From positions 69,235 to 133,234 of the forward strand of contig CAYOZJ010000002.1 of assembly GCA_964408485.1 (NCBI GenBank): a stretch of DNA of 64,000 nt, written 5' to 3'. The DNA comes from an uncultured Gammaproteobacteria bacterium. Lineage in GTDB: Bacteria; Patescibacteriota; Microgenomatia; Levybacterales; UBA12049. Below the pieces are notes generated by a model. The model was given only the letters and a program-made list of their open reading frames with translations, did no database searches and was not told the origin of the DNA. Made by a program: the position numbers and the translations under genes. Position 1 is the first letter of the stretch. Each line of letters begins with the position of its first letter. Of this stretch, positions 8,025 through 62,484 are shown one piece after another.

Positions 8025-8222
8025 TGCATTCATAGCAGTATGCAGTAAGAATTATGGGCATATTGCGTAGAGCATAAAGCATAATTCATATATTTATACA
8101 TTGGGCAAACACCGTGTAATTCGGTGGAAGTGCCGCTACTGTAAATCCAGAAAACCATGTATAAATCATTCTCGAGCAAGAACGTTTTTGGGCACGTCCT
8201 TCTCGAGAGAGAGGGATTTTTT

Positions 8223-8885
8223 ATGGAATTAATCAAAAAAGTAATACAACAATGGAGTAAATCGATTGCTATTATTCTTTTTCTTGTCGTTGCGTTTTTT
8301 GCAGGCAATATTACTGTGTTCTCAAAAAGTGACCACCCGCAAGTTTTAGGAGCAAAAACCCAGATTACTCCTATTCCCACACGTACGCCGATTCCAACAA
8401 CAGTGCCAGTTACGATTGTTAACAATATTATTGTTCCAACATCAGTTCCATTAGCCATATCCCCAACACCTGTTCAGTTACCAATCGTTATCGTTGTTAC
8501 CCCCACGCCAACCCCGATTGAATCGGGGCCAACTATTTCACCCACAGAAATACCTATACCAACTGTTACGCCAACACCAGTTTCTCAAACAATAACCATA
8601 GATGTTGACTATGCCGGTGAGCATGCAGAAAGTATCTATACCACTTCAATTGCTGCAGGGGAAAGTGCATGGCAAGCTGTACAAGATGCAATCGGGTTAG
8701 CAAATATTCACTACACGGATTATGGAGGAAGCCTTGGAATATTCATTACCGGATTCAACGGAACAGACGCTAACTCAAGTCAATACTATGATTTCCAAGT
8801 AAATGGAATCTCGTCTAATGTAGGAGTTTCCTCATATACCGCTCAGGATAAAGACACCTTGAAGTTTGTGTTAACCGGTTTCTAA
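8223..8885 (+). CDS. secreted Pro/Thr-linker protein with C-terminal DUF4430-like (transcobalamin-like B12-binding) domain
   Basis: TM/signal IAIILFLVVAFFAG, a long P/T/V linker, and a C-terminal domain ITIDVDYAGE...WQAVQDA...HYTDYGGSLGIFITGFNG...YYDFQVNG that matches the DUF4430 fold family. Starts at ATG 8223 after GAGAGGGATTTTTT. Confidence 0.5.
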   Translation: MELIKKVIQQWSKSIAIILFLVVAFFAGNITVFSKSDHPQVLGAKTQITPIPTRTPIPTTVPVTIVNNIIVPTSVPLAISPTPVQLPIVIVVTPTPTPIESGPTISPTEIPIPTVTPTPVSQTITIDVDYAGEHAESIYTTSIAAGESAWQAVQDAIGLANIHYTDYGGSLGIFITGFNGTDANSSQYYDFQVNGISSNVGVSSYTAQDKDTLKFVLTGF

Positions 8886-14754: not shown

Positions 14755-14760
14755 ACTGGA

Positions 14761-23253: not shown

Positions 23254-24657
23254 ATGAAGATAAGCGAATTACATACAAAACGAATTGCTATTTTGGGTCT
23301 TGGTGTAGAGGGATTAGCAACGGCACAATATTTTTTAGAACATAAGATTGCCTTTTCCATTATTGATGAAAAGTCATTTACCGAACTTTCTGAAGGAGGG
23401 GATTTAAAGAATGCTTTAGAAAAACTTAAAGAGAATACTATTCCACTCGTTTTGGGAGAAGTTCCCACAAAAGAGCAGCTAGCTCAGTACGATGTACTTG
23501 TAAGAGCACCTGGAATCTCTCTGAAGAAAGATTATCTGCGAGGATTTAGCGGTAGCATTACTTCTGCAACTAAGCTCTTTTTTGACAATTGCCCTGGGAA
23601 AATTATTGGTGTAACAGGGACAAAAGGAAAGGGAACAACCAGCACATTGATCTATGAAATGCTTAAAAGTGCAGGAATCGACGCATATCTTGGCGGCAAC
23701 ATAGGACTGCCTCCATTATCATTTTTGGATACAGTAGATGATCAATCTATTGTTGTTCTGGAGCTTTCTAGTTTTCAATTAGAAGACCTTCAAAAAAGTC
23801 CCCACATTAGTGTCATGCTTATGGTAACGCAGGAACACTTAGACGGTTTTGGAAATCAAAATTATCACAGCTCAATTCGTGAGTATGTTGATGCAAAAAG
23901 AAATATTGTCAGATTCCAAACAGCAGATGATATGGCAATTCTTAATACAGACTATCCTGCCACTACAGAATCAGCTGGTGTTACCTCGGCTCAGGTTGCG
24001 TGGGTGAGTAGATACAAGCCTGTTGGAACAGGGTGCTTTGTGAGAGACAATGAGGTAATTCTTCGCAGCAATAATCAGGAGACCAAAGTAATTGACGCAG
24101 CTGATATTTTTCTTCCTGGAGGACATAATTTAGAAAATATCTGTGCAGCAACTATGGCTGCGTATTTTGCAGGCGTTGATGTTGCTGAAATTGCATCAGT
24201 TCTCAAGACCTTTAAAGGCTTAGAACACCGGTTGGAGTTGGTTAGGGAGTTGGATGGTGTTAGATATTATGACGATTCTTTCTCAACGGTTCCTGAGACT
24301 GCTATTGCTGCAATTCAAGCATTTAGTAATCCAGAAATTTTAATCTTGGGGGGGTCAAGCAAGAAATCAGATTTTACTCAGCTTGGAAAGCTTATTAGCG
24401 AAACACCAAATATAAAAGCAATTATTGGGATTGGAGTAGAATGGCCAGTCATAGAATCAAGAATCAAGAATCAAGAATCAAGAATAAAAATAGTGACAGG
24501 GTTAACAACCATGAAAGATATTGTTGAGACAGTCAGGAAATTAAGTGAGCCAGGAGATGTTGTGCTTCTTTCTCCAGCCTGCGCATCATTTGGGATGTTT
24601 AAGAATTACAAAGACAGAGGCAATCAGTTTAAAGAGCAAGTAAACAAATTAACCTAA
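23254..24657 (+). CDS. murD: UDP-N-acetylmuramoylalanine--D-glutamate ligase (carries in-frame repeat insertion)
   Basis: ILGLGVEGLATAQYF plus GVTGTKGKGTTSTLIYEML. Contains an inserted ESRIKNQESRIKI peptide from a GAATCAA tandem repeat. Confidence 0.9.
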   Translation: MKISELHTKRIAILGLGVEGLATAQYFLEHKIAFSIIDEKSFTELSEGGDLKNALEKLKENTIPLVLGEVPTKEQLAQYDVLVRAPGISLKKDYLRGFSGSITSATKLFFDNCPGKIIGVTGTKGKGTTSTLIYEMLKSAGIDAYLGGNIGLPPLSFLDTVDDQSIVVLELSSFQLEDLQKSPHISVMLMVTQEHLDGFGNQNYHSSIREYVDAKRNIVRFQTADDMAILNTDYPATTESAGVTSAQVAWVSRYKPVGTGCFVRDNEVILRSNNQETKVIDAADIFLPGGHNLENICAATMAAYFAGVDVAEIASVLKTFKGLEHRLELVRELDGVRYYDDSFSTVPETAIAAIQAFSNPEILILGGSSKKSDFTQLGKLISETPNIKAIIGIGVEWPVIESRIKNQESRIKIVTGLTTMKDIVETVRKLSEPGDVVLLSPACASFGMFKNYKDRGNQFKEQVNKLT

Positions 24658-32752: not shown

Positions 32753-33658
32753 ATGCGAAAATTACAGCCTGAAAGAGTAAGAGAATTCCGCAGAAAAATA
32801 CTTTCCTGGTATAAAAAGAATAAGCGTGATTTACCTTGGCGCCATCCTTCGCTAAAGCTTCGGAATGGTAAAGGACGTGATCCTTATGCAATTCTTGTTT
32901 CAGAAGTAATGCTTCAACAAACACAAGTGAGTCGAGTCATTGAAAAATATAATGAGTGGATAAAAGCATTTCCAACAATTAGGAAATTGGCAAAAGCATC
33001 TTTTAGAGATATCTTGTCTCGTTGGTCAGGGCTTGGATACAACAGGCGTGCTTTATATCTGCAGCAGCTTGCCCAGGATATTGTGAAAAATCACCATGGA
33101 AAGTTTCCGCAGAATGAAAAAGAGCTACAAAAGCTTCCTGGCATTGGGGAATATACAGCTAGAGCAATTCTTTGTTTTGCATTTAATGAGCAAGTTGCTG
33201 TAGTGGATACAAATATCAGAAAAGTCATACTTACAAATTTTTTCTCTGAGCGAGCGAGGCGAGTCGAAGAGCCTTCGACAGGCTCAGGCAAAAAAGGTTC
33301 TGGGCAAGCCAGAATGACAGATAAAGAAATCCAAGAAATTGCAAATCAGCTTCTTCCAAAAGGAAAGGCCTATGAGTGGAATCAGGCGCTTATGGACTAT
33401 GCATCGAGTGAGTTAAAGCAGGAAAAAATACCAATTCCTAAGCAGTCAAAATTTAAAGATTCAGATAGGTATTATCGTGGAGAGATTTTGCGTATGCTTC
33501 TTACTAATCCTGCCTATTCATTTGAAGAGGTACAAAAACATTTTGTAGAAATCAAAAAAGAAATTTCTTCGCAGCGCCTTGAGAGAATAGTTCAAACATT
33601 ATATAAGGATAGATTTATTGAATATACAAAATCCGTTATAGTTCTGAGAAAGAATTAA
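32753..33658 (+). CDS. HhH-GPD DNA glycosylase (MutY/Nth family) with in-frame repeat insertion
   Basis: WYKKNKRDLPWR, PYAILVSEVMLQQTQV and LPGIGEYTARAILCFAFNEQVAVVDTNIRKV (HhH-GPD). Contains inserted FFSERARRVEEPSTGSGKKGSGQARMTDK. Confidence 0.8.
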   Translation: MRKLQPERVREFRRKILSWYKKNKRDLPWRHPSLKLRNGKGRDPYAILVSEVMLQQTQVSRVIEKYNEWIKAFPTIRKLAKASFRDILSRWSGLGYNRRALYLQQLAQDIVKNHHGKFPQNEKELQKLPGIGEYTARAILCFAFNEQVAVVDTNIRKVILTNFFSERARRVEEPSTGSGKKGSGQARMTDKEIQEIANQLLPKGKAYEWNQALMDYASSELKQEKIPIPKQSKFKDSDRYYRGEILRMLLTNPAYSFEEVQKHFVEIKKEISSQRLERIVQTLYKDRFIEYTKSVIVLRKN

Positions 33659-36294: not shown

Positions 36295-37320
36295 TTGTCA
36301 TGGTATACTACAAAGTACATGAAAAAGTTACTTCTGATTGATGGAAATGCCATTTTACACCGTGCATTTCATGCCTATCCACCAGTATTTTCTGACAAAG
36401 AGGGTAATCCTACAAATGCTATTTATGGCTTTTATGCAATGCTTTTAAAAGTTATGGAGGAGGTAAAACCAGATTTACTCACCATTTGCTTTGATCAAGG
36501 TGCGCCGACTTTTCGCATGAATATGTATGCTGGGTATCATGCCAATAGGCCAAAAATGCAGGACACATTGGGAGTACAGGTCGAGCCCTTGCGTGAGTCT
36601 TTGCGTAAAATAGGAATTCCCGTTGAAGCAATCGATGGATATGAAGCAGATGATTTAATTGGGACATTATCTCATCAAGCGTCAAGCGTAAGGCGTAAAG
36701 GGGAAAGTTTGGAAACAATAATCCTAACAGGTGACAGGGATCTTTTGCAGTTAATTAACGAGCATACCAAAGTTCTTATGCCAATAACAGGAATTACGAA
36801 GTCTGTCTTAATGGATGAAGGAGCAGTTGAGGCAAAATACGGCATAAAGGCAAGTCAGGTAATTGATTACAAAGCCTTAGTTGGCGACCCGTCTGATAAC
36901 TATCCAGGTGTTGGGGGAATAGGTCCTAAAACAGCGGCAACACTTCTTAAAGAGTGGGAAACATTGGAGAATTTGTATACCCATTTGGGAGATATAAAAC
37001 CTGAGTTGAGTCAAAAATTAGCTCAAGATGCAGAGCAGGCAATGCTATGCAAGAAGTTGGCAACCATTCAGCTAGACGTACCTGTTCATTTAGATATAAA
37101 GAAAGCAGATGTAGACAATTTTTCTCTGGAAAAGTTTTTGGATATTTTCGAGCACTTCAATATTCACTCATTGGTTAAGAGGCTTAGTCTAGCGCTAGGA
37201 AGTGAAGCACCTATAACACGAAGCGAGACGAAGCAATCTAGTTTAAAGAAAGATTCTGGACAAGCCAGAATGACGAAAGAAGAAAAGAAGAAAGAGGATA
37301 GTCAACTAGAGCTACTTTAG
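36295..37320 (+). CDS. 5'-3' exonuclease (stand-alone Pol I 5'-nuclease/FEN domain) with repeat-derived C-terminal tail
   Basis: LLLIDGNAILHRAFHA and GDRDLLQL, H3TH region. The C-terminal ~40 aa (SETKQSSLKKDSGQARMTKEEKKKED) derive from repeat DNA. Confidence 0.85.
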   Translation: MSWYTTKYMKKLLLIDGNAILHRAFHAYPPVFSDKEGNPTNAIYGFYAMLLKVMEEVKPDLLTICFDQGAPTFRMNMYAGYHANRPKMQDTLGVQVEPLRESLRKIGIPVEAIDGYEADDLIGTLSHQASSVRRKGESLETIILTGDRDLLQLINEHTKVLMPITGITKSVLMDEGAVEAKYGIKASQVIDYKALVGDPSDNYPGVGGIGPKTAATLLKEWETLENLYTHLGDIKPELSQKLAQDAEQAMLCKKLATIQLDVPVHLDIKKADVDNFSLEKFLDIFEHFNIHSLVKRLSLALGSEAPITRSETKQSSLKKDSGQARMTKEEKKKEDSQLELL

Positions 37321-38300: not shown

Positions 38301-38393
38301 AGAAGAAAATTGCTCTATTGCTGAATTACTAAATTGTTCTAGAAAAACAATATAACAATTTAAGAATTTAACAATTAGTATAGTGAGATTGCT

Positions 38394-39101
38394 TCACTTC
38401 GTTCGCAATGACGAATCACTTTTTAACCAGCGGACGCCGAGATACACTAGTGGTGTTTCAATAATAGACATAAAGCAGCGAAGAAGCCAATAGGGAAGAG
38501 CTATGCCTGCAATAAAGGAAATATTTGCTCCAAAGGATACATTGAGGGCCCAGAATGCTAGCGTCATAAAGATTGCTGTATCAAAAAACTCAGAGACAAA
38601 ATTACTTACATTTGTCCTGAGCCAGAGGTTTTTCTTGCCTAATTTTTGCCTCATTTTCGCAAAAATAAATACGTCAGAGAATTCAGAAATCGCAAATGCA
38701 ATAAGGGATGCTGCAGAAAAACGAATGGATATACCAAAGATTGTGTTGTACGCATTATTTGTTGAAAGAAATCTGGTGCTTGGAGGAAGGGAGGTCGCTA
38801 ATATAGAGAAAAGAAGTAAGAAAAAAATCATAAAAAGACTACTTCTGACAATGCTTTGTGCGCGGGCCTTGCCATAGACCTCTACAATAATGTCATTTGC
38901 TGCGTAAATGAATGGCAAAATAAAAATAACAACAGTTGCATTAAGGTGAAATGTACCAAGAGTTGCGATAGGAAATGTTTTAGCACCCATGACTTCGGAA
39001 ATAATTACGCAGGTAATATAAAATGCTGCAAGGAGGTCAAATTTCTGGATATTTATCATGATGTAGAGCATGATACGGGAAGTATATGAGGCTGTCAACA
39101 T
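38394..39101 (-). CDS. YhhQ/DUF165 family queuosine-precursor transporter-like membrane protein
   Basis: Polytopic. PFIYAANDIIVEVYGKARA resembles the YhhQ/VUT family core. The last 10 codons and the stop derive from a repeat element. Confidence 0.5.
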   Translation of the reverse strand: MLTASYTSRIMLYIMINIQKFDLLAAFYITCVIISEVMGAKTFPIATLGTFHLNATVVIFILPFIYAANDIIVEVYGKARAQSIVRSSLFMIFFLLLFSILATSLPPSTRFLSTNNAYNTIFGISIRFSAASLIAFAISEFSDVFIFAKMRQKLGKKNLWLRTNVSNFVSEFFDTAIFMTLAFWALNVSFGANISFIAGIALPYWLLRCFMSIIETPLVYLGVRWLKSDSSLRTK

Positions 39102-39446: not shown

Positions 39447-40727
39447 ATGCCTAGAATAGCCCTGGTTCACGATTATATTAAAGAATACGGTGGAGCGGAA
39501 AGGGTACTAGAGACTTTGCATGAAATGTATCCCAATGCACCTGTATTTACCCTAGTATATTGTCCAAAATTCTTAGGACCACATAAAGATAGATTTAAGA
39601 ATTGGGATATCCGCACATCATTTCTTCAGTCTATCCCTTTTAAAGAAAAATTTATTAGCATCTTTCGGCTTTTTGCCCCATTTATTTTTCCATTTTTCAA
39701 CTTTGCTGGGTACGATGTAATCATTGTAAGCGCAACAGGGGCATATAGTCCCAACGTAGTTGGGACAAGAGGTAAGAAGGAAGAGGTAAGAAGTAAGGAA
39801 AGTGACCATACGCCATACGCCATACGCCATACGCCGTATCACATCTGCTACTGCCACACGCCGCCCAGATATTTGTATGGATACGCAACAGCTAGAGAAC
39901 TAAAAAAGAATTCTCTTATTCGATTATTGGCAGAATGGATGAATAAATGGCTTGTGCGAGTAGACAAAAAGTCCAGTAAAAATGTGGATTTGTATATTGC
40001 CAATTCAGAAGAAGTACGAGCACGAATTAAGAAATTTTATAACAAAGATGCAATTGTTGTGTATCCACCAGTTGATGTTCCTTCAGTGTCATTCCTGCGA
40101 AGGCAGGAATCCAGGAAAGGAACTGGATCCCGGATCGGAGTCCGGGATGACAATTTTTATCTAGCAGGCGGGCGTCTTGCCAGGCCAAAGCATTTCGATT
40201 TAATCATCAAGGTAGCAAATGAATTAAAGTTGTCCCTCAAGATTTTTGGGAAAGGATTTGCAGGGTATGGAGAAGAGCTGTATGATTTGGCAAATAGACT
40301 ACAGCAAGCAGACTACAGTAAAGAAGCTGTAGTCGGTAGTCCGAAAGCTGTAAGCGTTATTACGTTTTTGGGAGAAGTAACAGATGAAGAAAAAATACAT
40401 CTTATGTCCGGTGCTAAAGCATTTATTATGAGTAGTGAAGATGAGGATTTTGGCATAACACCAGTTGAGGCAATGGGGGTTGGGACACCGGTGATTGCAT
40501 ATAAGAGTGGTGGACTTAAAGAAACAGTTATTGATGGCAAGACAGGAGTATTTTTTGACATGTTATCTGCAGAAAGTCTAATTGGGGCAATAAAGAAGTT
40601 TGAAGCCCTTCGACAAGCTCAGGGTAAAAGACTGTCTGAGAATTGTATTGCGCAAGCGCAAAAATTTAGCAAAGAGAACTTTGAAAAAGGAATTCGTTCT
40701 GTCATCTCTAAAATCTTGTCATCCTGA
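39447..40727 (+). CDS. glycosyltransferase family 4 (GT1-fold) with multiple in-frame repeat insertions
   Basis: MPRIALVHDYIKEYGGAERV N-terminus and C-terminal EDFGITPVEAMGVGTPVIA (E-x7-E region). Inserted peptides EEVRSKESDHTPYAIRHTPYH and SFLRRQESRKGTGSRIGVRDD. The stop lies inside a GTCATCCTGAG repeat. Confidence 0.8.
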   Translation: MPRIALVHDYIKEYGGAERVLETLHEMYPNAPVFTLVYCPKFLGPHKDRFKNWDIRTSFLQSIPFKEKFISIFRLFAPFIFPFFNFAGYDVIIVSATGAYSPNVVGTRGKKEEVRSKESDHTPYAIRHTPYHICYCHTPPRYLYGYATARELKKNSLIRLLAEWMNKWLVRVDKKSSKNVDLYIANSEEVRARIKKFYNKDAIVVYPPVDVPSVSFLRRQESRKGTGSRIGVRDDNFYLAGGRLARPKHFDLIIKVANELKLSLKIFGKGFAGYGEELYDLANRLQQADYSKEAVVGSPKAVSVITFLGEVTDEEKIHLMSGAKAFIMSSEDEDFGITPVEAMGVGTPVIAYKSGGLKETVIDGKTGVFFDMLSAESLIGAIKKFEALRQAQGKRLSENCIAQAQKFSKENFEKGIRSVISKILSS

Positions 40728-40942
40728 GCTTGCGAAGGATATATTCTTCACTTTGTTTAGAATGACAAAGGAAAAAGATTTCTCACTTCGTTCGAAATGA
40801 CACTCTTCTTACTTATTTCTAACCTCCTCTTACACAATATTAATTGTAATTTCATTTAAGAGTTCTATCCTGTCAGGAAGCTGTTGGGGAATCGTTGGCC
40901 ATAGGTCAAGTTAAAGATTCTCTGCAGGAATATAATTAGCTT

Positions 40943-41143
40943 ATGGCAGAAGATTTATTTTTCACCCCAGACATGGTATTTGATCCTAAAGCACTCGACA
41001 TACTTCTTCCTCCTCAGCCTTATACTGCTGAGTCTTCCCCAATTGTAAAAGTACAAAACGTAGCGCCTATTGGGCAGGAAAAACAAAGAAGAAAACCTCG
41101 CGAAAGATCCAAGCCAGCGAAGCGCCTGCGAATGGCAACCTAA
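40943..41143 (+). CDS. hypothetical small protein
   Basis: 66-aa ORF, weak support. Confidence 0.2.
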   Translation: MAEDLFFTPDMVFDPKALDILLPPQPYTAESSPIVKVQNVAPIGQEKQRRKPRERSKPAKRLRMAT

Positions 41144-41328
41144 GGCTGACAAAAAACTGACAAAATAGTTTAAAAATAGATAAATTTAGCCTCAGAAGTC
41201 CTCTTGACATCCCGTAGTAAAGGGAGTACTATTTCTTCTATTGTTATTGTTTTGGACGATAAAGTTGAAGCAAGGTACTGCCTACTCCTAATTTCTTCGT
41301 CAAAACTCTGAGGAGGTGAATTTATTTT

Positions 41329-42776: not shown

Positions 42777-43997
42777 ATGATCCTCAGGTCAATTCTTCTT
42801 CAGCATTTTCGCAATTATACCCAGGAAAAGTTTGATTTTTCAGAAACTCTCACTCTTATTATTGGAGTAAATACTGCCGGTAAAACCAATCTTTCTGAGG
42901 CAATATATTTACTTGCAACAGGGAAGAGTTTTAAGGCAGGTAATGATACATTTATGATTGCTTTTGGACAAGAGATTGCAAGGGTGGGAGGATTGCTGGA
43001 AGATGTCATCCCCGACCAGATCGGGGATCCAGGAAAAGAACTGGATTCCCGCTTTCGCGGGAATGACAGTAAAAAAAAGGATGACGGTTTGGACAAGACT
43101 AAAATAGAAGTAGTTATCGCCAGTCCTCAGGCAACTGGAGGGAGATTTAGCAAGAAATTTCTTATAAATGGTGTTGGAAAATCGCGGAATAGTTTGCGAG
43201 GTATGCTCCCAATTGTCCTTTTCCGGCCTGAAGAATTGGACATTATTATTGATGGACCAAGTCTCAGGCGCGCATTTCTTAATGAAGTACTTGAGCAGGC
43301 AGATAAAGAATATGCCCAAGCATTATCTGTCTTCGAACGGTCTCTTAGGCAGCGCAATGCGCTTCTTCGTATAGCTCAGGAGACTGGAAAACGAAATAGT
43401 GAGCAATTTGATTATTGGGACGAGCTTCTTATTGAGAGTGGGCAGACAATTACACAAAAGCGTGAAGAATTTTTGGTATTTATCAATTCATCCACTCATG
43501 ATATTTTTCCTTTACAGACTTTTTTCGATAAGAGTATTATTTCTCGCGAACGGTTAGATGGATATGAGATGGCAGAAGTCGGGGCAGGGGTGACCCTTGT
43601 AGGGCCTCACAGAGATGATTTCTTTGTGAACATGGAATATCCTGGTTTTAATCCCAACCCTCATCCCAGCTCGCCGAGGCAAGCTGACCTTCTCCCAAAA
43701 GGAGAAGGAGAACAAGGTGATATCCACTACGTGGATATACGATTTTTCGGTTCGAGGGGGCAGCAGAGACTTGCAGTGCTCCAGTTAAAAATGCTCCAAA
43801 TACAGTATTTGGAAAAGAAACTAGGAGTATTGCCACTTCTTATCTTGGATGATATTTTTTCTGAATTAGATAGTAACCATATTCAGCTTGTTTTGGATAA
43901 CGTGAAAGGATGCCAAATCATTCTAACCACAACGCATAGGGAGTTTATTCCACAAAAGGTATTACGTGAGGCTAGTGTGGTAGAATTAGAGCGATAA
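42777..43997 (+). CDS. recF: DNA replication and repair protein RecF with in-frame palindromic-element insertions
   Basis: MILRSILLQHFRNY, Walker A GVNTAGKTNLSEAIY and C-terminal LILDDIFSELD. Inserted VIPDQIGDPGKELDSRFRGNDSKKKDDG. Confidence 0.85.
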   Translation: MILRSILLQHFRNYTQEKFDFSETLTLIIGVNTAGKTNLSEAIYLLATGKSFKAGNDTFMIAFGQEIARVGGLLEDVIPDQIGDPGKELDSRFRGNDSKKKDDGLDKTKIEVVIASPQATGGRFSKKFLINGVGKSRNSLRGMLPIVLFRPEELDIIIDGPSLRRAFLNEVLEQADKEYAQALSVFERSLRQRNALLRIAQETGKRNSEQFDYWDELLIESGQTITQKREEFLVFINSSTHDIFPLQTFFDKSIISRERLDGYEMAEVGAGVTLVGPHRDDFFVNMEYPGFNPNPHPSSPRQADLLPKGEGEQGDIHYVDIRFFGSRGQQRLAVLQLKMLQIQYLEKKLGVLPLLILDDIFSELDSNHIQLVLDNVKGCQIILTTTHREFIPQKVLREASVVELER

Positions 43998-44093: not shown

Positions 44094-44972
44094 ATGCAAC
44101 AATTTGACATAAAACAACTGAAACAGCTTTACATTCCACCAGCTGGATCTCATAAAGGGGACAATGGAAAGGTTATGGTTATTGGCGGAAGTCAGCTTTT
44201 TCATGCTGCATCACTTTGGTCTTTGGAAATTGCATCAAAAATTGTAGATATGGTTTTTTACTCATCAGTTGATGCAAACAATGCACTCGTTGAAAAAGAA
44301 AAGGAAGCATTTAGAAATGGGATTATTGTTCCAAGAAATAAAATTGAAGATTACATTGCAGAGGCAGATAGCGTACTTATTGGGCCAGGATTACCAAGAG
44401 AGAATGGCTACGAGGCAGGCGATGACGATACAAAAATTCTCACCGAAAAACTTCTTAAAAAATATCCCAATAAGCGATGGGTAATTGATGGTGGTAGTTT
44501 GCAGGTGATTAACCCTGACCTTATTCCACAAAATGCTATTCTTACGCCACATCATCAAGAATTTGAAAGACTGTTTGGAAAGCGTCAAGCGTCAAGCGTC
44601 AAGCGTAAAGGAGAGAAAGAGATTGCCGCGGTCGCTAAAGACTCCCTCGCAATGACGGTTGGGGAGATGGCAAAGAAATATCACTGTATTGTTTTACTGA
44701 AAGGTCCAGAAGATGTTGTTTGTTCGGAAAATGAATGTGTAAGAGTTCCGGGAGGTAATGCAGGTATGACAAAAGGTGGAACAGGAGATGTGCTTGCAGG
44801 GCTTACAGCAGCTTTATATTCCCAAAACGCTGACGCATTCTTAGTAGCAACTTCTGCAAGCTATATCAATAAAAAAACAGGTGAGTCTCTTTTTGAAAAA
44901 CAAGGCTATTACTTTAACTCAAGTGATTTAGTGAAGGAAATCCCAGGAGTCATGAAAGAATTACTGCTCTAA
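44094..44972 (+). CDS. ADP-dependent NAD(P)H-hydrate dehydratase / YjeF C-terminal carbohydrate-kinase-like domain protein
   Basis: GDNGKVMVIGGSQLFHAASL and GGTGDVLAG. Carries the insertion KRQASSVKRKGEKEIAAVAKDSLAMTVGE. Confidence 0.75.
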   Translation: MQQFDIKQLKQLYIPPAGSHKGDNGKVMVIGGSQLFHAASLWSLEIASKIVDMVFYSSVDANNALVEKEKEAFRNGIIVPRNKIEDYIAEADSVLIGPGLPRENGYEAGDDDTKILTEKLLKKYPNKRWVIDGGSLQVINPDLIPQNAILTPHHQEFERLFGKRQASSVKRKGEKEIAAVAKDSLAMTVGEMAKKYHCIVLLKGPEDVVCSENECVRVPGGNAGMTKGGTGDVLAGLTAALYSQNADAFLVATSASYINKKTGESLFEKQGYYFNSSDLVKEIPGVMKELLL

Positions 44973-45354: not shown

Positions 45355-46407
45355 ATGTATACCCCAACCTACACAATAAGCAATACAATCCTTCGTAATA
45401 TTGGTCTTATTGAGGCTGCAAAACAGGTAATTGATAGCGCTCCACTTCTTCCGTACTATGAAAAGAAATTTCGCGACGATGCTATGGTAAGAGCTGTCCA
45501 TTATGGCACGCATATTGAAGGAAACGAACTGTCACTCAATCAGGCAGAAAAAGTTTTGTCTGGTCAGATTGTTGACGCACGCGACCGAGATATTCAAGAG
45601 GTCTTAAATTATCGAAAGGTTATGGAGATGATCGGTTCATCGGAAATCGGGAATCGGGAATCGGGAATTGACGAAGAACTTATTTTTAAACTCCATAAGC
45701 TTACAGTCACTAAAGTTTTACCCGAAGAGCAGTCTGGTAATTATCGAAAAACAAAGGTAGTTATTCGCAATAGCCGCAGTGCAGAAGTAGTATTTACGCC
45801 GCCTTCTCCTGAGGAAGTAGCTGGACAAATGAGTGATTTTATTGCATTTATACAAACTCAGTCAGGTCAAGATATTCATCCAATATTGAAATCTGGAATT
45901 GTTCATTATGAATTCGTGAGAATTCATCCGTTTGTCGATGGAAATGGTCGGGTAGCACGGGCACTCTCGACTCTTATTCTTTTTTTGGAAGGGTATGACA
46001 TTCGACAGTTTTTCTCTTTGGAAGAATACTTTGATAAAGATGCTCTCAGCTATTACGAGGCACTGCAAAGTGTTGGGAAAAATAATGGAGACGTGACAAA
46101 TTGGCTTGAGTATTTTACTCATGGTCTTGCCTATGAGTTGGGAAGAATCCGGGAAAGAGTAGAGCATGTATCTGTAGATAATAGGCTTAAGCAGCGACTT
46201 GGTGGCAAGCCAATGATGCTGACAGACAGGCAGTTGAGGATTGTTGAATATATTCAAGAAACAGGTTTTCTGCAAAATCAAGCATTTAAAGAATTATTTC
46301 CAATGATTTCTGAAGACGCAGTGCTTTTGGATTTAAAAGAACTAGTTAAAGCTGGTCTTATTAAGAAATCAGGTGTCACTAAGGGCGCAAGGTATGTGAT
46401 GAGCTAA
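45355..46407 (+). CDS. Fic family protein (AMPylase-type) with C-terminal wHTH
   Basis: Fic motif HPFVDGNGRVARAL. Contains inserted IGNRESGI repeats from GAATCGG heptamers. Confidence 0.85.
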   Translation: MYTPTYTISNTILRNIGLIEAAKQVIDSAPLLPYYEKKFRDDAMVRAVHYGTHIEGNELSLNQAEKVLSGQIVDARDRDIQEVLNYRKVMEMIGSSEIGNRESGIDEELIFKLHKLTVTKVLPEEQSGNYRKTKVVIRNSRSAEVVFTPPSPEEVAGQMSDFIAFIQTQSGQDIHPILKSGIVHYEFVRIHPFVDGNGRVARALSTLILFLEGYDIRQFFSLEEYFDKDALSYYEALQSVGKNNGDVTNWLEYFTHGLAYELGRIRERVEHVSVDNRLKQRLGGKPMMLTDRQLRIVEYIQETGFLQNQAFKELFPMISEDAVLLDLKELVKAGLIKKSGVTKGARYVMS

Positions 46408-47730: not shown

Positions 47731-49521
47731 ATGACCTTTGCGAAATTAGCCTCGTATTTTGAAAAATTAGAAGCAACTTCCTCCCGTTTAGAGCTTATCC
47801 GTATTCTCTCAGAACTCTTCAAAGAAATAAAAACTCCAGATGAAATAGAAAAGGTATGTTATTTGGTTCAGGGTCGTATTGCGCCATTTTTTGAAGCAAC
47901 AGAAATCGGAATGGCAGAACGGACTGTGGCACAGTCCGTTGCTACAGCATTTAATGTCGAAAAAGAGAAAGTCTTAAAAGAATATAGTAAGCGTGGAGAT
48001 TTAGGGTTGGTTACGTATGAGCTTGCGCAAGAAGTAAGAAGTAAGAATTATGAATCAAGAATAACCATAGATGAGGTGTTTGAAACTTTAATAAAAATAG
48101 CAAAGACTAGTGGGGAAGGAACTGTTGAAAAACGACTAACATTATTAACAGATCTTTTGCAAAAAGTAGACGCACTTTCAGCAAAGTTTCTTGTACGCAT
48201 TCCACTAGGTAATCTTCGTTTGGGAATTGGTGACCCAACTGTTTTAGATGCACTCGCGACAGTAAAATTGGGAGATAAAACCCAGCGACATTATTTAGAA
48301 GATGCATACAATAGGACATCTGACTTAGGACTTATTGCAAAAACTCTTTGGTCAGAAAAAAGCGCAATGAAAGCATTGGGTGCAGTCGAAAAATTAGAAG
48401 TAACAGTTGGTAAGCCAATTCGAAGCGAATTGTGCGAGCGTCTTCCTAGTCCTGAAAAAACAATAGAAAAAATGGGGACAGTGGATTCACAGTTTAAATA
48501 CGATGGATTTCGCGTACAAATTCATAAAAATGGAAATGAAATCTCGCTTTTTTCTCGTAATTTAGAAAATATGACCCATATGTTTCCAGAGCTTATAGAG
48601 GGAGCCAAGAGACAAATTAAAGCGCGTAGCGCAATTCTGGATAGCGAAGCATTAGCATACATACCTGAGTCTGAAGAATTTTTGCCTTTCCAGGAGACAA
48701 CAAAACGAAGACGTAAGCATAATATAGAAGAAACAATGGCCAAGCTTCCACTTAAGTCATTTGTTTTTGACATTTTGTATAAAGATGGCAAGTCACTTAT
48801 TGGCGAACCTTTAGAAAAGCGTTTGGAGATTTTGTCAAAAACCCTTCGGCCAGCTCAGGGCAAGCAGTTTAACGATAGTGTTCTTTTTCCAGCAGATACT
48901 AAAAAGATTTCTGATGCAAAGGTGTTATCTCTTATGCTTGATGACGCAATTTCTAAAGGCTTAGAGGGAATAGTAGTAAAGAAATTGAATAGTCTTTACG
49001 AAGCAGGCGCGCGCAATTTTAACTGGGTAAAGCTAAAGCGTAACCAGTCTGGTGAGTTAACAGATACGGTTGACTGTGTGATTTTAGGATACATTTTTGG
49101 CAAAGGAAAGCGAACAGCATTTGGCGCAGGAGCATTATTGGTTGGTGTGTATGATAAAGCATCAGATAGCTTTGTAACAGTAAGTAAGATTGGAACAGGA
49201 TTAACTGATGAGGAGTGGAAAAGTATTAAGGAAAGGACAAAAGGATTAGAACTTTCTCATAAGCCAGCTCGGGTGAGCTCTATTATAGAACCAAGTGTTT
49301 GGGTAAAGCCTGAGATTGTTATAGAGGTCTTGGCAGATGAGATTACAAGAAGTCCTATTCATACAGCAGGAGCTACTTTGGAGAACGGAAAAGTCGTTGA
49401 GCCAGGATATGCTCTCAGATTTCCACGGTTAGTTAACTTTCGGGATAAAGATAAAAAATCAGAAGATGCAACGGATGTGAAAGAGTTGATTGAAATGTAT
49501 AAGAGTCAAGGAAAGAAGTAG
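47731..49521 (+). CDS. ATP-dependent DNA ligase
   Basis: Adenylation motif KYDGFRVQIH (KxDG), OB domain. Inserted heptamer-derived QEVRSKNYESRI. Confidence 0.85.
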   Translation: MTFAKLASYFEKLEATSSRLELIRILSELFKEIKTPDEIEKVCYLVQGRIAPFFEATEIGMAERTVAQSVATAFNVEKEKVLKEYSKRGDLGLVTYELAQEVRSKNYESRITIDEVFETLIKIAKTSGEGTVEKRLTLLTDLLQKVDALSAKFLVRIPLGNLRLGIGDPTVLDALATVKLGDKTQRHYLEDAYNRTSDLGLIAKTLWSEKSAMKALGAVEKLEVTVGKPIRSELCERLPSPEKTIEKMGTVDSQFKYDGFRVQIHKNGNEISLFSRNLENMTHMFPELIEGAKRQIKARSAILDSEALAYIPESEEFLPFQETTKRRRKHNIEETMAKLPLKSFVFDILYKDGKSLIGEPLEKRLEILSKTLRPAQGKQFNDSVLFPADTKKISDAKVLSLMLDDAISKGLEGIVVKKLNSLYEAGARNFNWVKLKRNQSGELTDTVDCVILGYIFGKGKRTAFGAGALLVGVYDKASDSFVTVSKIGTGLTDEEWKSIKERTKGLELSHKPARVSSIIEPSVWVKPEIVIEVLADEITRSPIHTAGATLENGKVVEPGYALRFPRLVNFRDKDKKSEDATDVKELIEMYKSQGKK

Positions 49522-49874: not shown

Positions 49875-51374
49875 ATGGTTGATGTTGTTGCAGATTTACA
49901 TCTGCATTCTCGTTTCTCCAGAGCGGTTAGTCCTCAAATGACTCCTCCCACAATGGCACAATTTGGAGACCAGAAAGGGATAGATCTTTTGGCAACAGGA
50001 GACTGGACACATCCGGTATGGTTTCGGGAAATCAGCAACTTTCTCACAGAAGCAGAAGAAGGACTGTATAAAATCAAGAATCCAACTCCCCAAAATGAAA
50101 AGACACGATTTCTTCTTTCTGTAGAAATTGCCTCTATTTATTCCCAAGGAGGGAAGGGAAGAAGGATTCACAACTTAGTATTTGTTCCATCCTTCGAAGT
50201 GGCAGCAAAAGTAAATAAAGAGCTGATAAAACGCGGATTTAATTTATCTTCTGACGGGAGGCCAATCATAGGATTTTCCTCAAAGAATTTACTTTCACTT
50301 CTCCTTGAAGTAGATGAGCGGTGTCTTCTTATTCCCGCTCATGTCTGGACGCCATGGTTTGGCATTTACGGACAGATGTCTGGGTTTCAAAGTCTTGCGG
50401 AAGCATTTGAAGAATTAGCACCAAAGATTTATGGAATAGAGACAGGTCTTTCAAGTGATCCGGAGATGAATTGGCAAGTTGATGAGCTAAAGACAAGGTC
50501 AATTCTTAGCTTTTCTGATGCACATTCTCCTGCGAAAATGGGGCGAGAAGCAACGGTTTTTCGCTTGGACAGCTTGTCTTATGAGAATATTCGTCAAGCA
50601 ATAATGGCGCCAAGCCTTCGTTCCGTCATTGCGAGCAAAGCGAAGCAATCTAATATAAATAAGGAGAAGATTGCCACGTCGCAAGCTCCTCGCAATGACA
50701 ATGTTAATAAAGTACTCTACACCATAGAATTTTATCCAGAAGAGGGGAAGTACCATTATTCAGGCCATAGAAATTGCGGAATTACCATGACGCCACAAGA
50801 GCAAGCAGCAGCGCATAATATTTGTCCTGTATGTAAAAGGTCTCTTACCGATGGGGTTATGAGACGTGTTCAGGAACTCGTAGAAAAGGACCCTTCGGCA
50901 TCGGTTCGGCAAGCTCACGACGAGGGCTCAGGGCAAGGTCCCTTTGGAAGTCATACGCCTAATAAAAGTGGCCTTGTCTGGATAACAGACCCTAAAGAAA
51001 ATCGTCCACCATTTGTCAAAATAGTACCGCTCCAGGAAATAATTAGTGAGGCAATTGGGAGTCCTTTTGCAAGCCCGAAGGTAAAAGTAATCTTCGATAT
51101 GCTCTGTAAAGACGGACTCTCTGAATTTAATGTACTCCTTAAATTGCCCTTACCAGATATTGAGCGAATAAGTCTTAGTATTACTTCAAAAGAATTTGCT
51201 GAAAAAATTACTGATGGAATAAAGAAAGTACGTGCAGAGCAAATTGTGATTAAGCCAGGATACGACGGTGTATTTGGGGTAGTAAAGATTTGGAGTGATG
51301 AGAATGACAGTGAAAACCCTTCGACTTCGCTCAGGGAAAAAGATACTGAAGAGCAGATTGGATTAGAGTTTTAG
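49875..51374 (+). CDS. Endonuclease Q (EndoQ)-like PHP-domain nuclease with zinc finger
   Basis: DLHLHSRFSRAVSPQMT PHP N-terminus, LIPAHVWTPWFGIYG, SFSDAHSPAKMGREAT, KYHYSGHRNCGI and CPVCKRSL zinc finger, RPPFVKIVPLQEII. All are collinear with archaeal EndoQ as I recall it. Confidence 0.7.
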   Translation: MVDVVADLHLHSRFSRAVSPQMTPPTMAQFGDQKGIDLLATGDWTHPVWFREISNFLTEAEEGLYKIKNPTPQNEKTRFLLSVEIASIYSQGGKGRRIHNLVFVPSFEVAAKVNKELIKRGFNLSSDGRPIIGFSSKNLLSLLLEVDERCLLIPAHVWTPWFGIYGQMSGFQSLAEAFEELAPKIYGIETGLSSDPEMNWQVDELKTRSILSFSDAHSPAKMGREATVFRLDSLSYENIRQAIMAPSLRSVIASKAKQSNINKEKIATSQAPRNDNVNKVLYTIEFYPEEGKYHYSGHRNCGITMTPQEQAAAHNICPVCKRSLTDGVMRRVQELVEKDPSASVRQAHDEGSGQGPFGSHTPNKSGLVWITDPKENRPPFVKIVPLQEIISEAIGSPFASPKVKVIFDMLCKDGLSEFNVLLKLPLPDIERISLSITSKEFAEKITDGIKKVRAEQIVIKPGYDGVFGVVKIWSDENDSENPSTSLREKDTEEQIGLEF

Positions 51375-51512
51375 GCTTCTTGACTTTTGATTGCAAATTT
51401 CTCCATACTAAATATGTAGTAAGTATTAGGTATTACGTATTAAGTATATTAAGGAACTTTATTTATACATACTACTTACTACTTAATACAAAACGGGAGG
51501 GGGGTGAAATAT

Positions 51513-52002: not shown

Positions 52003-52235
52003 TGTCATTTCGAACAAAGCGAGAAATCTCATTCAAGTATTTTTCTTCTTCTGTACTTTTGTGCCGACAAAAGATACCAAAAACTCTCGCCAAGGTCTTG
52101 TTCGAGCTTTCAAAAAAGAGCTCCAAAGCTAAAAGTACGCAGTTCGCTTTCACTTTCTTTACGCTTTTATGCCCTTTTTCTTATGCACTCACTGCAAATT
52201 GGCGAATAAGAACCATTTACATGAGGAGTATAATA
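52003..52235 (+). repeat. ~200-bp dispersed repeat copy A (upstream of pth)
   Basis: Near-identical core to 63530..63745 (..CTCTCGCCA.G..CTTGTT..AGCTTTCAAAAAAGAGCT.CAAAGCTAAAAGTACGCAGTTCGCTTTCACTTTCTT.ACGCTTTT..). Confidence 0.7.
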
Positions 52236-53858: not shown

Positions 53859-53930
53859 TTGGGTCATCCTGGCTTGTCCAGGATCTAGATTCTGGATGCG
53901 CTTTGCTTACCAGAATGACAGGAGAATTTT

Positions 53931-57103: not shown

Positions 57104-57222
57104 CTCCTCTTGGTCCTTTCGACAAACTCCGGGTCAATGCAGAGTAAAAATTACAGTCTTGACAAATGCAACTGAGTTGCATATACTAACAATGTTTGAT
57201 CTTGTATAACTAAGGCAATACA

Positions 57223-57687: not shown

Positions 57688-57817
57688 GTGTCATCCTGAG
57701 CAAGCTAGAGGATATATTCTTTCCCGACTCGGGACTAGGTTCGCAGAACCGTTGCACACGTTCAGAATGACAATAGGACTGGATCCCGGATCGGAGTCCG
57801 GGATGACAAATTAATAT

Positions 57818-59637: not shown

Positions 59638-59735
59638 GAAGCAAGAATCATGAATTAAGAATTATGCAGAGGGTTTATTAAAAATAAAGTACCTTATATC
59701 CATAATTCATACTTCTTGATTCATAATTCATATTT

Positions 59736-60533
59736 ATGCTAGATATATTTCAATACTCATTCATGATAAGAGCTTTAGAGGTGGGACTCCTTATTGGTGC
59801 GATCGCACCGCTTATTGGTATTTTCTTAGTGCTTCGGAGATATTCACTTATTGCCGATACATTGTCTCATGTCTCTTTAGCAGGTGTTGCTGTAGGCTTA
59901 CTTATAAATGTTAATCCACTCCTTACTGCAATTGGTGCAGCAGCTATTTCGTCGGTCATTATCGAGCGTCTTAGGCTTTCTAAAAGGGTATATGGTGAGT
60001 CTGCCTTGTCTATTTTCCTTTCAGGAAGTCTTGCAGTTGCAATTATTCTTATTAGTCTTGCACATGGATTTCGTGTTGATTTGTTTAACTATCTTTTTGG
60101 AAGTATTGTTACGGTTAAGCAATCTGATGTGTATATTATTCTGGGTGCTGGAATAATTGTTTTTTTAACTATTCTTGCTTTCTATAAAGAGCTTGTCTAT
60201 GTAACATTCGATGAAGAGGCAGCGCAAGTTGGGGGAATTCCAACGAGATTTATTAATATTCTCCTTATTATTCTAGCTGCAATTACTGTAGCGCTTTCTA
60301 TTCCTATTGTTGGTGTCCTTCTTATATCAGCTCTTATTGTTATTCCTGTCGTGACAAGTCTTCAGCTTCAAAAAAGCTTCTTGCAGACTATTTTGTATGC
60401 GGAAGGGATTTCTCTTTTCTCCGTTATTGCAGGTATTATCGGGTCATTTTACTTAAATATTCCAGCAGGTGGAGCCATTGTGGTGATTAATTTAGTTTTG
60501 TTCTGTTTGTCTTTATTGATAAAACAAAAGTAA
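59736..60533 (+). CDS. metal ABC transporter permease (ZnuB-like)
   Basis: Polytopic. Typical ABC-3 family layout. Confidence 0.8.
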   Translation: MLDIFQYSFMIRALEVGLLIGAIAPLIGIFLVLRRYSLIADTLSHVSLAGVAVGLLINVNPLLTAIGAAAISSVIIERLRLSKRVYGESALSIFLSGSLAVAIILISLAHGFRVDLFNYLFGSIVTVKQSDVYIILGAGIIVFLTILAFYKELVYVTFDEEAAQVGGIPTRFINILLIILAAITVALSIPIVGVLLISALIVIPVVTSLQLQKSFLQTILYAEGISLFSVIAGIIGSFYLNIPAGGAIVVINLVLFCLSLLIKQK

Positions 60534-60574
60534 GAGTAGTTTGTCTGGGAAGTGAGTAGGAGTATACCTACTCT

Positions 60575-60814
60575 TTACCTTTCTGTGCTTCCGCCAGAAC
60601 GAATTGCTCTTATGAGGGTTCCTCCGAGGTCTCTTTTGGTAGCTTCATCTGCTACGGCAAATATTGTCCTAAGACCAACCTCTCTTGCGTAAAATTTGAG
60701 CCCATCCTGAAGTAATTCTCTCATTTCTTGAACTGCCTCTCTGCGTACCCGTTCATTTTTTGCAATACGTCGTTGATTCCAAGATATAGCTGCATCAACA
60801 GGTTTAATTCTCAT
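60575..60814 (-). CDS. hypothetical small basic protein
   Basis: 79 aa, Arg-rich, no domain recognised. Confidence 0.3.
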   Translation of the reverse strand: MRIKPVDAAISWNQRRIAKNERVRREAVQEMRELLQDGLKFYAREVGLRTIFAVADEATKRDLGGTLIRAIRSGGSTER

Positions 60815-60911
60815 ATAGCAATACTATATCACGTTTAAAATAAACCGCTTGACTGAATCCTGACAATTATTATAGGTTGACATTTTTAATAGAACGCTGT
60901 ATTATCCCTTC

Positions 60912-61448
60912 ATGGTATTTGGAAGAGCAGCAGAAAGAGTAGAAGCCATTGATAGGATGGTTGGTCGTCTTAACGCAGCGTTTCTTTCTTCTCGCACGCG
61001 AAAACCTTCAGAATCTTCTGCAAAAGGATTACCATCTATTCCTTCCAAGCAATTAGCTATTATCGAGCAAGGGTTACGAAGAGTGGCAAAGAAGAGACCT
61101 TTGTTACCTAGACCTCGCTTTTTTCCTCAAGTTGAAAACACAGAAACCACATTAGCAAGACCAGGCAATGTTGCCGCAGATGTCTATACAGAGACGCAAG
61201 GTTTGGGTGTAGTAGGGGGAGCGGTAAAAGTAGATGCTACTTTGAGACCTCATACTTTTGCTGCATCAATTCCAGGCGTTCCGTATGAAGTAAAAGCTAC
61301 CTATAAAGCGCATGGTCCTCATGACATATTTAGACCCGGTCAAAGCGCAGAACTTGACGTAACGTATTTTGAGTACGATGGGATAGGGCCTGACGGGCGA
61401 ATAAAAGTTAAAGCTGTTGCACATTCCAATAAACCACTTCATCCATAA
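60912..61448 (+). CDS. hypothetical protein
   Basis: 178 aa, Arg/Pro/Gly-rich, no domain recognised. Confidence 0.4.
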   Translation: MVFGRAAERVEAIDRMVGRLNAAFLSSRTRKPSESSAKGLPSIPSKQLAIIEQGLRRVAKKRPLLPRPRFFPQVENTETTLARPGNVAADVYTETQGLGVVGGAVKVDATLRPHTFAASIPGVPYEVKATYKAHGPHDIFRPGQSAELDVTYFEYDGIGPDGRIKVKAVAHSNKPLHP

Positions 61449-61526
61449 GATCTAATCCAACGCTCCAGAAGTAGTTGTTCCACATGAAGAGATTCTTTAA
61501 AGTAGAGAAGATTTTTTGATTTAACC

Positions 61527-62327: not shown

Positions 62328-62484
62328 AATAAAGAGTATACCGAGTTCTTAACAAATATGTCAAGAAACAAAAGCATATTTCTATTGCTAAATTACTATA
62401 TTGCTAAATTGTTATTAACAATATAAGAATTTGTTAATTTAACAATTTCGTTTTACTCAATGTGACAGTTGTTTGTAATACTAC

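Follow-up and report, generated by a model that had tools for sequence, protein, structure and literature searches.

Repetitive extragenic palindromic (REP) sequences with a CGTC tag, the Rickettsia palindromic elements (RPEs), and the hairpins recognized by the nuclease Ssn in Neisseria are the closest described systems to the element analyzed here. This element is a 66-nt double hairpin read in frame within a glycosyltransferase family 4 (GT4) gene of an uncultured bacterium of the candidate phyla radiation (CPR; Patescibacteria). The gene lies in a 64,000-nt stretch of contig CAYOZJ010000002.1 (GenBank assembly GCA_964408485.1), hereafter the window, whose coordinates are used throughout.

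The survey by Di Nocera, De Gregorio & Rocco 2013 (PMC3733652) divides the CGTC-tagged repeats into families CGTC-1 to CGTC-4, with a CGTC tag that is often TGTC (variants TGTC and CCTC), stems of 8-9 bp that start with complementary AT, loops of 4-5 nt, and a CCA tail. They occur there mainly as inverted dimers, some having spacers with complementary ends, near the 3' ends of open reading frames (ORFs), and the survey associates no transposase with them. It identifies the Neisseria repeat dRS3 as CGTC-1, and the Rickettsia conorii elements RPE-6 and RPE-4 as CGTC-1 and CGTC-4. Dimers that lie in frame within genes and encode 20-30 aa are also described there, many in genes for replication and repair. 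For the GTAG-tagged repeats, the survey notes cases in which the tag provides the stop codon. The RPEs (Ogata et al. 2000, as cited in PMC3733652) are in-frame palindromes in conserved genes of a reduced genome that add surface peptides; the classic RPE-1 is much longer than the 66-nt unit, and the host is an obligate intracellular alphaproteobacterium, whereas ours is an uncultured CPR bacterium.

Chenal et al. 2025 (PMC11893778), who used RefSeq representative genomes, defined the 28-nt NTS (Neisseria Transformation Sequence; CGTCATTCCCGCGMAVGCGGGAATCYRG), of which the dRS3 repeat is a part, and a degenerate Ssn-related motif (SRM), HGTCWYN(0-2)YYVSBRHN(0-5)WNVSBRGN(0-2)RNCYNB. Ssn is a small GIY-YIG nuclease that binds the hairpin as single-stranded DNA (ssDNA) and cuts a few bases upstream of the tag, on one strand only; its gene, of the single-domain cd10448 type, often has the motif on its flanks. 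Its role in natural transformation was demonstrated for N. meningitidis alone. That paper mentions neither Patescibacteria nor in-frame coding copies.

The 66-nt dimer of the GT4 gene and its relatives in the window

Small hairpin repeats lie inside genes of this CPR bacterium and are read in frame as extra peptide loops. The most prominent of them, the 66-nt segment of the GT4 gene at 40087..40152 (plus strand), is as a whole very probably best explained as two TGTC/CGTC-tagged REP hairpins, of the dRS3/NTS/SRM type, that are joined as an inverted dimer. The host ORF (39447..40727, plus strand, 426 aa) matched Pfam PF13439 (Glyco_transf_4) in its N-terminal and PF00534 (Glycos_transf_1) in its C-terminal part. 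An earlier reading made from the letters alone (the sequence-only reading) had called attention to features between 39770 and 40805, and every one of these was located where it had been placed, including the 66-bp unit with its TGTCAT...ATGACA ends, two strong palindromes, and in-frame reading SFLRRQESRKGTGSRIGVRDD. A third palindrome (CCAG-N8-CTGG), which that reading did not list, was identified between the two strong ones.

The monomers of this unit each consist of an unpaired (T/C)GTC tag, an 8-bp stem beginning with AT, a short loop, and a CCA(G) tail, joined with tags outward and CCA tails inward. The left arm (40087..40114, plus strand) is NTS-like, with a TGTC tag, the 8-bp stem ATTCCTGC/GCAGGAAT, the loop GAAG, and the tail CCAG. 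The right arm (40123..40152, minus strand) has the same tag and tail, the 8-bp stem ATCCCGGA/TCCGGGAT, and a 6-nt loop, and it matches the SRM exactly. The tails ATCCAG and CTGGAT pair to form the middle stem, so that the unit folds into three hairpins closed by terminal TGTC/GACA pairing. The folding check proposed earlier bore this out, with -18.9 kcal/mol as DNA (z = -5.7) and -35.9 kcal/mol as RNA (z = -5.8), and in both cases none of 200 shuffled sequences folded as well.

The likeness to the Neisseria repeats extends to the nucleotide level. The left arm agreed with the NTS at 25 of 28 positions, two of the three differences forming a compensatory C-G to T-A stem pair, and one arm of a second dimer in recF (43041-43068, minus strand) agreed at 27 of 28. 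The strict SRM pattern was found at 4 sites in the window (40123-40152, 43004-43032, 43041-43068, and 57779-57808) as compared with 0.08 in 100 dinucleotide shuffles. A looser search for GTCAT followed by a hairpin whose stem starts with AT recovered 21 exact sites (mean of 3.0 in shuffles), and 26 sites when 1 mismatch was allowed (6.1 in shuffles). The unit is thus repeated, as had been supposed, with approximately 20 modules per 64 kb and dimers starting at 40087, 40717, 43004, 50624, and 53862. An unpaired TGTC tag was present on both GT4 arms and both recF arms, and the remaining window copies were tagged as well. Both GT4 arms end in CCA tails (...AAT/GAT-CCAG).

The recF copy (43004..43069, plus strand) is a second three-hairpin dimer, in the opposite orientation and in frame (DVIPDQIGDPGKELDSRFRGNDS), and both of its arms fit the SRM; in the solved RecF structure 5z67, residues 76-127 of the encoded protein have only residues 78-97 as their counterpart. 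A further tagged dimer is in frame in an endonuclease Q homologue (50624..50700, plus strand; SVIASKAKQS...APRNDN), where residues 252-278 had no counterpart in PfuEndoQ (5zb8). In-frame palindromic inserts that are missing from orthologs, the hallmark of RPEs, were therefore found in GT4, recF, and endonuclease Q. Single tagged hairpins were identified in the C-terminal tail of a 5'-3' exonuclease (37251..37275, minus strand; KDSGQARMT), with a sister copy in an HhH-GPD glycosylase (33293-33317; GSGQARMTD), and a Vut_1 transporter gene takes both its final residues and its TGA stop from a tagged module (38386..38413, minus strand; SSLRTK*).

Outside genes, the copies include a cluster of tagged modules at 57689..57808, the arm 57779-57808 of which is near-identical to the right arm in GT4 (34 identities in 35 nt over 57778-57812). 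An inverted dimer with 7-bp stems occupies the gap between two genes, 4 nt past the first and 11 nt short of the second (53862..53920; fold of 53861-53887, z = -3.6), and another intergenic module is at 63532-63561. Intergenic modules mostly lie a few bases past a gene end. By crude gene calls, approximately 8 of approximately 20 modules fall in the coding 89% of the window and approximately 12 in the remaining 11%. The GC skew, checked for module orientation relative to replication direction, was positive throughout the window with no switch.

Our reading of the repeats is that they would be scattered through the genome, mostly just after genes, and would also be tolerated inside genes because the reading frames of the dimer are nearly stop-free, because only insert lengths in multiples of three survive, and because the surviving copies sit in surface loops or inter-domain linkers. 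Four of the 6 dimer reading frames were open, and the other 2 contained just the terminal TGA of ATGACA.

The terminal inverted TGTCAT/ATGACA ends, small size, and multiple copies of the unit are also features of a MITE (miniature inverted-repeat transposable element), a class to which we give very little probability. The apparent inverted repeats are merely the 6-nt tags of 2 independent monomers that also occur singly, as compared with the terminal inverted repeats of roughly 15-30 bp and the target-site duplication of MITEs; no such duplication was found at the GT4 or recF junctions, and the arms combine freely with different partners. The paper on the Coxiella QMITE gives no GTCAT/ATGAC sequence for comparison.

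Several observations weigh against assigning the GT4 unit and its relatives to the CGTC-tagged, Ssn-associated family. The GT4 left arm falls outside the strict SRM pattern because of its compensatory C-G to T-A stem pair, and the 6-nt loop of the right arm exceeds the 4-5 nt of the 2013 definition of CGTC-tagged REPs; in the window, loops measured 4 nt (GAAG) and 6 nt in the left and right GT4 arms, 4 and 5 nt in the recF arms, and 10-12 nt in weak modules. The tagged modules that form a chain at the 3' end of the GT4 gene are outside the SRM pattern and singly fold like shuffled sequences (z of approximately 0). Finally, no ssn-like ORF was found in the 64-kb window: a hidden Markov model (HMM) built from 120 Ssn homologues returned nothing at E <= 10 and recovered its positive controls, 2 regular-expression screens for ssn in the window returned nothing, and Pfam analysis of 9 small repeat-adjacent ORFs identified no GIY-YIG domain.

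The proposed likeness to RPEs was apt, in that these are in-frame inserts in conserved ORFs and that RPE-4 and RPE-6 are CGTC-tagged. The accompanying suggestion of a different sequence family is unsupported because the in-frame CGTC family, including RPE-4 and RPE-6, has been known since 2013 and Ssn since 2025; the anatomy is that of the CGTC/TGTC-tagged REPs as given in PMC3733652, which include dRS3, RPE-4, and RPE-6, and one arm is near-identical to the NTS (PMC11893778). The kinship to RPE-4 and RPE-6 follows the description in PMC3733652. With the CGTC-tagged REPs described there, the unit has in common the tag, the AT-first stem, the CCA tail, inverted dimers, 3'-end positions, and in-frame readings of 20-30 aa. 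Patescibacteria are absent from the five phyla listed there, and unlike the repeats described there, the present genome also has AT-richer derivatives with 5-bp stems and loops of 10-12 nt. Our analysis thereby joins three literatures, on Rickettsia RPEs, CGTC-tagged REPs, and Ssn with its NTS/SRM, and extends them to the CPR, a group whose small genomes let selfish or regulatory repeats stand out when these lie within essential genes.

Five of approximately 10 repeat-decorated genes in the window act on DNA, namely those for the HhH-GPD glycosylase (32753-33658), the 5'-3' exonuclease (36295-37320), RecF (42777-43997), an ATP-dependent DNA ligase (47731-49521), and endonuclease Q (49875-51374). 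This echoes the remark on replication and repair genes in the 2013 survey (PMC3733652), and the window itself is rich in such genes.

Insertion sites, conservation, and persistence of the dimer

We compared the GT4 protein with its best 120 homologues, all glycosyltransferases of 360-471 aa; the named organisms among them were Patescibacteria (Levybacteria, Roizmanbacteria, Microgenomates, and Saccharimonadales). Three sites varied widely in length across these orthologs and represent loop hot spots for inserts. Site 1, after SATGAY-xPN, has a baseline of 9 residues (57 of 120 orthologs) and a maximum of 55; site 2, after YPPV in the linker joining the 2 Rossmann-like halves, a baseline of 11 and a maximum of 55; and site 3, after GYGEEL, a baseline of 9 (42 of 120) and a maximum of 42. 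The 66-nt dimer occupies site 2. By sequence comparison, the GT4 segments are insertions. Alignment with 23 of the 120 orthologs showed proteins of 360-364 aa without any segment, and in a neighbor-joining tree the closest relatives of the query (P0014, P0013, P0005, and P0018) were at baseline length in all 3 sites. A syntenic ortholog with the same neighboring genes and 69% nucleotide identity (L003) has a clean 60-nt gap at site 1, lacks 57 nt at site 3 (approximately 40283-40364), and is without the module chain of approximately 110 nt 3' of the gene, ending at its own TAG stop.

In an AlphaFold2 model of the GT4 protein (mean predicted local distance difference test score, pLDDT, of 81.5), residues 110-126, 226-232, and 293-300 had a pLDDT below 50; these residues are inside inserts and are predicted to lie between secondary-structure elements. 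Residues 143-148, outside the inserts, also fell below 50. The sequence-only reading had described 3 insertions in one conserved gene and had proposed to check that they are lineage-specific and placed on loops. Their insertion status stood, since the shortest and nearest orthologs are without them, as did their placement in loops, given the low pLDDT, but the count was too low, with at least 5 repeat-derived segments in the ORF 39447..40727. Nor are the site-1 and site-2 inserts private to the lineage, because they recur at the same positions in orthologs, the dimer in 4 more, patchily distributed orthologs and the site-1 insert in one (L133), which goes part of the way toward the ancestral origin that the same reading had named as its counter-case.

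Five orthologs, namely the window gene and those of L003, L134, L135, and L136, share the junction and the reading frame of the site-2 dimer (...S-[LV]/T | SF[LS]R...), although their 150-nt flanks to each side of it are just 50-70% identical. Between the window and L003, the element is identical at 62 of 65 positions, as compared with 69% for the rest of the coding sequence (CDS) and 47% for its third codon positions (binomial P = 1.6e-7), and all 3 differences are in loops. Across the 5 orthologs, differences are mainly in the loops and the central spacer. L134 carries a compensatory change of the right stem from ATCCCGGA/TCCGGGAT to ATTCCGGA/TCCGGAAT plus a G-T wobble, L135 another compensatory right-stem variant with a decayed left stem, and L136 has lost the spacer and has both stems identical to those of L003. 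In L003, a 1-nt loop deletion is offset by 4 additional nt just past the element; the reading frame therefore matters, and the element is translated. The dimer would contribute approximately 22 additional linker residues to GT4, and the peptide predicted from read-through of the element is SFLRRQESRKGTGSR.

Such constancy could mean that the gene has long contained the dimer and has passed it on by vertical descent, with selection for a functional nucleic-acid structure (perhaps an ssDNA site that modulates recombination or transformation of this locus, or an mRNA structure), so that it would not be a selfish repeat. The shared junction and frame despite flanks of low identity, the mostly kept stems with compensatory changes among the differences, and the contrast with the host CDS all fit such an origin. 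We nevertheless regard it as unlikely, because the dimer is patchy on the ortholog tree and absent from the nearest relatives, the left stem of L135 is decayed, and the same dimer occurs in recF in the opposite orientation. Moreover, the loop TCGGAGT of the GT4 right arm is shared with the intergenic copy at 57778-57812 of the same genome, whereas 3 of the 4 orthologous copies have TCAAGT and L135 has TCAGGT; at the level of sequence, this points to exchange between copies within one genome. With the dimer taken as a tagged REP repeat, what preserves its stems would probably be exchange among the copies in the genome, selection on the hairpin, or both.

The occurrence of the dimer at one site may reflect constrained retention, gene conversion, or repeated insertion at one spot. 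A bolder reading would treat Ssn and its SRM as an active generator of protein insertions in Patescibacteria. Homing-like nicking and copying by the GIY-YIG nuclease would put the dimer, or put it back, at a specific codon in the GT4 linker, and at least some in-frame heptamer arrays, such as that of the Fic gene at 45639-45673, would arise by slippage of SRM arms. Homing-like placement would explain why 5 divergent orthologs have the dimer at the identical nucleotide and frame with near-identical stems; taken jointly, we consider this set of proposals quite unlikely. The GT4 orthologs amount to a natural experiment, with 3 hot spots, 120 variants, and a dimer kept at one codon despite the divergence of its flanks, and the family could be used to separate targeted insertion, selection, and homogenization of hairpins by gene conversion.

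It is almost certainly not the case that the in-frame segments were made by repeat-induced chimeric joins during assembly or binning. Short-read Logan contigs of the same sample (SRR9179560) do break at repeats, and one of them (L002, equivalent to approximately 60378-63510 of the window) ends shortly before the module at 63532. However, independent assemblies of other samples, L003 (ENA), L004 (NCBI), L134, L135, and L136, have the dimer in the identical position, and the frames are intact with indels compensated. In practice, tagged repeats probably fragment short-read assemblies of such genomes, and they give rise to numerous spurious or extended ORFs in genomes of the CPR.

Ssn-type genes in CPR genomes and distribution of the dimer

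The ssn genes of related CPR genomes are linked to hairpins. CPR GIY-YIG proteins were assigned to the Ssn family by Pfam PF01541 and homology. At one locus with 6 SRM matches in 8 kb (L056), the gene for a single-domain GIY-YIG protein of 97 aa (PF01541, E = 2e-16) has an SRM hairpin approximately 20 nt upstream and a degenerate inverted copy just downstream. The closest relatives of this protein, 76-89% identical, include 97-aa proteins under the NCBI name Candidatus Roizmanbacteria and proteins under the name Patescibacteria group bacterium. The CPR loci L124 and L126-L131, which encode such relatives, each have a GTCAT hairpin within 21 nt of the GIY-YIG gene; in L126 and L127 the tagged hairpin is 9 nt upstream, and in L124, L130, and L131 inverted GTCAT hairpins bracket the gene at 17-19 nt from both its start and its stop. 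The NTS-ssnA-NTS arrangement of PMC11893778 recurs here around a 97-aa single-domain GIY-YIG gene in CPR relatives. By analogy with other bacteria, we infer a Ssn-type GIY-YIG partner for the Patescibacteria copies, and a putative Ssn of this genome would recognize and act on the copies described above.

Tagged hairpins that form inverted dimers and, past gene ends, mosaic chains, together with an enzyme that is specific for single strands and recognizes the hairpin, also recall the GTAG-tagged REPs, their REP doublets forming hairpins (REPINs), and bacterial interspersed mosaic elements (BIMEs), which are moved by REP-associated tyrosine transposases (RAYTs, IS200/IS605-like). That the units are repeats of this kind has a very small probability indeed. 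The similar look, with short tagged palindromes, inverted dimers, and post-gene positions as given in PMC3733652, is offset by a tag that is TGTC or CGTC and not GTAG, by the lack of a transposase for CGTC repeats in the same survey, and by the gene flanked in CPR relatives, which is a GIY-YIG nuclease and not an HUH (histidine-hydrophobic-histidine) tyrosine transposase. No Y1 transposase or RAYT was identified among approximately 20 window ORFs in a scan that was not exhaustive.

The dimer junction, GGAATCCAG-N6-10-CTGGATCCC, was sought in species-representative genomes, one for each species, and was found in at least 119 stretches. Among the matches listed, 55 have (T/C)GTCAT as well as ATGAC(A/G) with the spacing expected; untagged junction matches are best disregarded because some tens of chance matches are estimated. 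Tagged dimers among the matches listed came from Daviesbacteria, Roizmanbacteria, Uhrbacteria, Taylorbacteria, and Saccharibacteria (Patescibacteria), as well as from many Proteobacteria, Planctomycetota, and others. When the three-hairpin structure was placed on 37 aligned dimers, 96.7% of cells were paired, far above all slid controls, and 42 double-sided changes were counted as compared with 11.8 in column shuffles (none of 500 shuffles as high), the covariation being informative at inner stem positions and the outer positions fixed by the search pattern. A CGTC or TGTC tag was present in all 37 dimers, and the first pairs, A-T and T-A, were invariant in all 37; the CCA tail in the aligned dimers is imposed by the search pattern and is free in the window copies.

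CGTC-tagged in-frame dimers in repair genes (2013) and the partner enzyme Ssn (2025) are already known. What is new is the presence of the family in Patescibacteria, the ssn linkage there, and a recurrent, highly conserved dimer at one codon of a CPR glycosyltransferase.

Other segments of the GT4 gene and further repeats of the window

The tagged chain at the gene's 3' end begins with a weak TGTC-tagged hairpin module (40717..40741, plus strand) that has no counterpart in L003. The claim that a repeat supplies the stop codon proved correct, the TGA (40725-40727, read TCC-TGA) lying within GTCATCCTGAGCTTGCGAAGGAT (40718-40740), and L003, without the module, ends at its own TAG. In the GTAG repeats of the 2013 survey (PMC3733652) such stop codons come from the tag, whereas in GT4 the stop is an internal TGA of the tagged module. 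The chain does continue beyond the stop, with 2 further tagged modules, 40743-40767 and 40778-40802, both on the minus strand; the former pairs with 40717-40741 as an inverted dimer. In an RNA fold of 40710-40840 (z = -2.35), the first 2 chain modules pair together, and the modules in 40743..40802 are 88-93% complementary to copies at 52003 and 63532.

These modules (40717-40802) are AT-richer, with GTCAT, a 5-bp stem, and a loop of 10-12 nt, and in stems of this type the 3 inner bases covary between copies (TGC/GCA, TTC/GAA, TCT/AGA, and CCT/AGG). Their anatomy, namely the tag, the AT-first covarying stem, and the C tail, suggests that they belong to the tagged family. A classical terminator was considered for the chain, and a scan of 40500-41200 identified no intrinsic terminator. 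A scan of the whole window at Rfam gathering thresholds gave no match at the repeats, identifying only 2 tRNAs and an AdoCbl-II riboswitch.

The site-1 insert (39767..39840, plus strand) consists of a purine-rich 7/14-nt array, AAAGTGAC, and (CCATACG)x4.3, encoding GKKEEVRSKESDHTPYAIRHTPYH. Tandem Repeats Finder delimited arrays at 39767-39797 (period 7/14) and 39806-39835 (CCATACG x4.3, 100% matches), so the heptamer array noted earlier is real; grouping it with the other 2 repeat insertions was not upheld, as it is a repeat of a different kind. The segment is of a repeat class other than the SRM hairpins. In L133, the protein of which is 56% identical, a homologous insert was found at the same site and with the same length (approximately 85% nucleotide identity by eye), and HTPxAIRHxPxH-like peptides occur in scattered orthologs.

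The site-3 insert (57 nt; 40283..40364, plus strand), which the sequence-only reading had not listed, contains two copies of GACTACAG with 14 nt between them and, in addition, an inverted hairpin of CTGTAGTC, and it encodes part of NRLQQADYSKEAVVGSPKAVSV. It is a unique hairpin with a 14-nt direct repeat, and a second copy was sought in the 64-kb window and not found. The site-1 array and the site-3 GACTACAG hairpin would be separate lineage-specific inserts at 2 further loop hot spots and not SRMs. A small 15-nt module, CCTTCGACAAGCTCAGGG (40607..40624, plus strand), adds 5 residues in the RQAQGKR region and is common to L003 and 7 of 120 orthologs, which have 11 residues here instead of 6. 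The same position belongs to a short repeat family, CCTTCGAC(A/C)(A/G)GCTCAGG(G/C), with 5 window copies (8910-8927, 33272-33289, 40607-40624, 48843-48860, and 57116-57133), 3 of them in ORFs (glycosylase, GT4, and DNA ligase) and read as xLRQAQGK or PSTGSG. Endonuclease Q (residues approximately 339-373) has similar 'SGQ' peptides, as do other GT4 orthologs at a fourth site.

In-frame heptamer arrays were also identified in MurD (24453-24485), the 5'-3' exonuclease (36677-36700), NnrD (44580-44610), Fic (45639-45668), and DNA ligase (48029-48062), and intergenic ones at 51416-51489, 59645-59732, and 8034-8090 are arranged as inverted pairs with the potential to fold into long hairpins. The 64-kb window has 4 perfect arrays with at least 3 copies, as compared with 8 in approximately 1 Mb of other loci. 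The Fic array (45639-45673) reads (CGGGAAT)x4 followed by TGACG, which on the other strand is a CGTCA tag with the NTS stem arm ATTCCCG in tandem, and it looks like an amplified SRM arm. Slippage beside GTCAT tags as a source of the arrays had no general support, with a tag near 2 of 12 perfect arrays as compared with 1.2 expected, and a literature search for heptanucleotide repeats in the CPR returned nothing relevant.

A two-copy repeat of approximately 210 nt (52003-52215 and 63532-63745, 87-95% identical) begins with a tagged module (TGTCATTTCGAACAAAGCGAGAAATC). The approximately 180 nt past the module have no convincing ORF and no Rfam match at the gathering threshold, and the repeat could be a longer element or a small RNA.

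A tRNA-Ile with anticodon TAT (UAU) was identified at 14682-14756. Such a tRNA is uncommon in bacteria, where AUA is usually decoded by a lysidine-modified CAU tRNA. The AdoCbl-II (cobalamin) riboswitch aptamer lies at 8093-8165 (44.3 bits, gathering threshold 36.5), upstream of the ORF 8157..8885.

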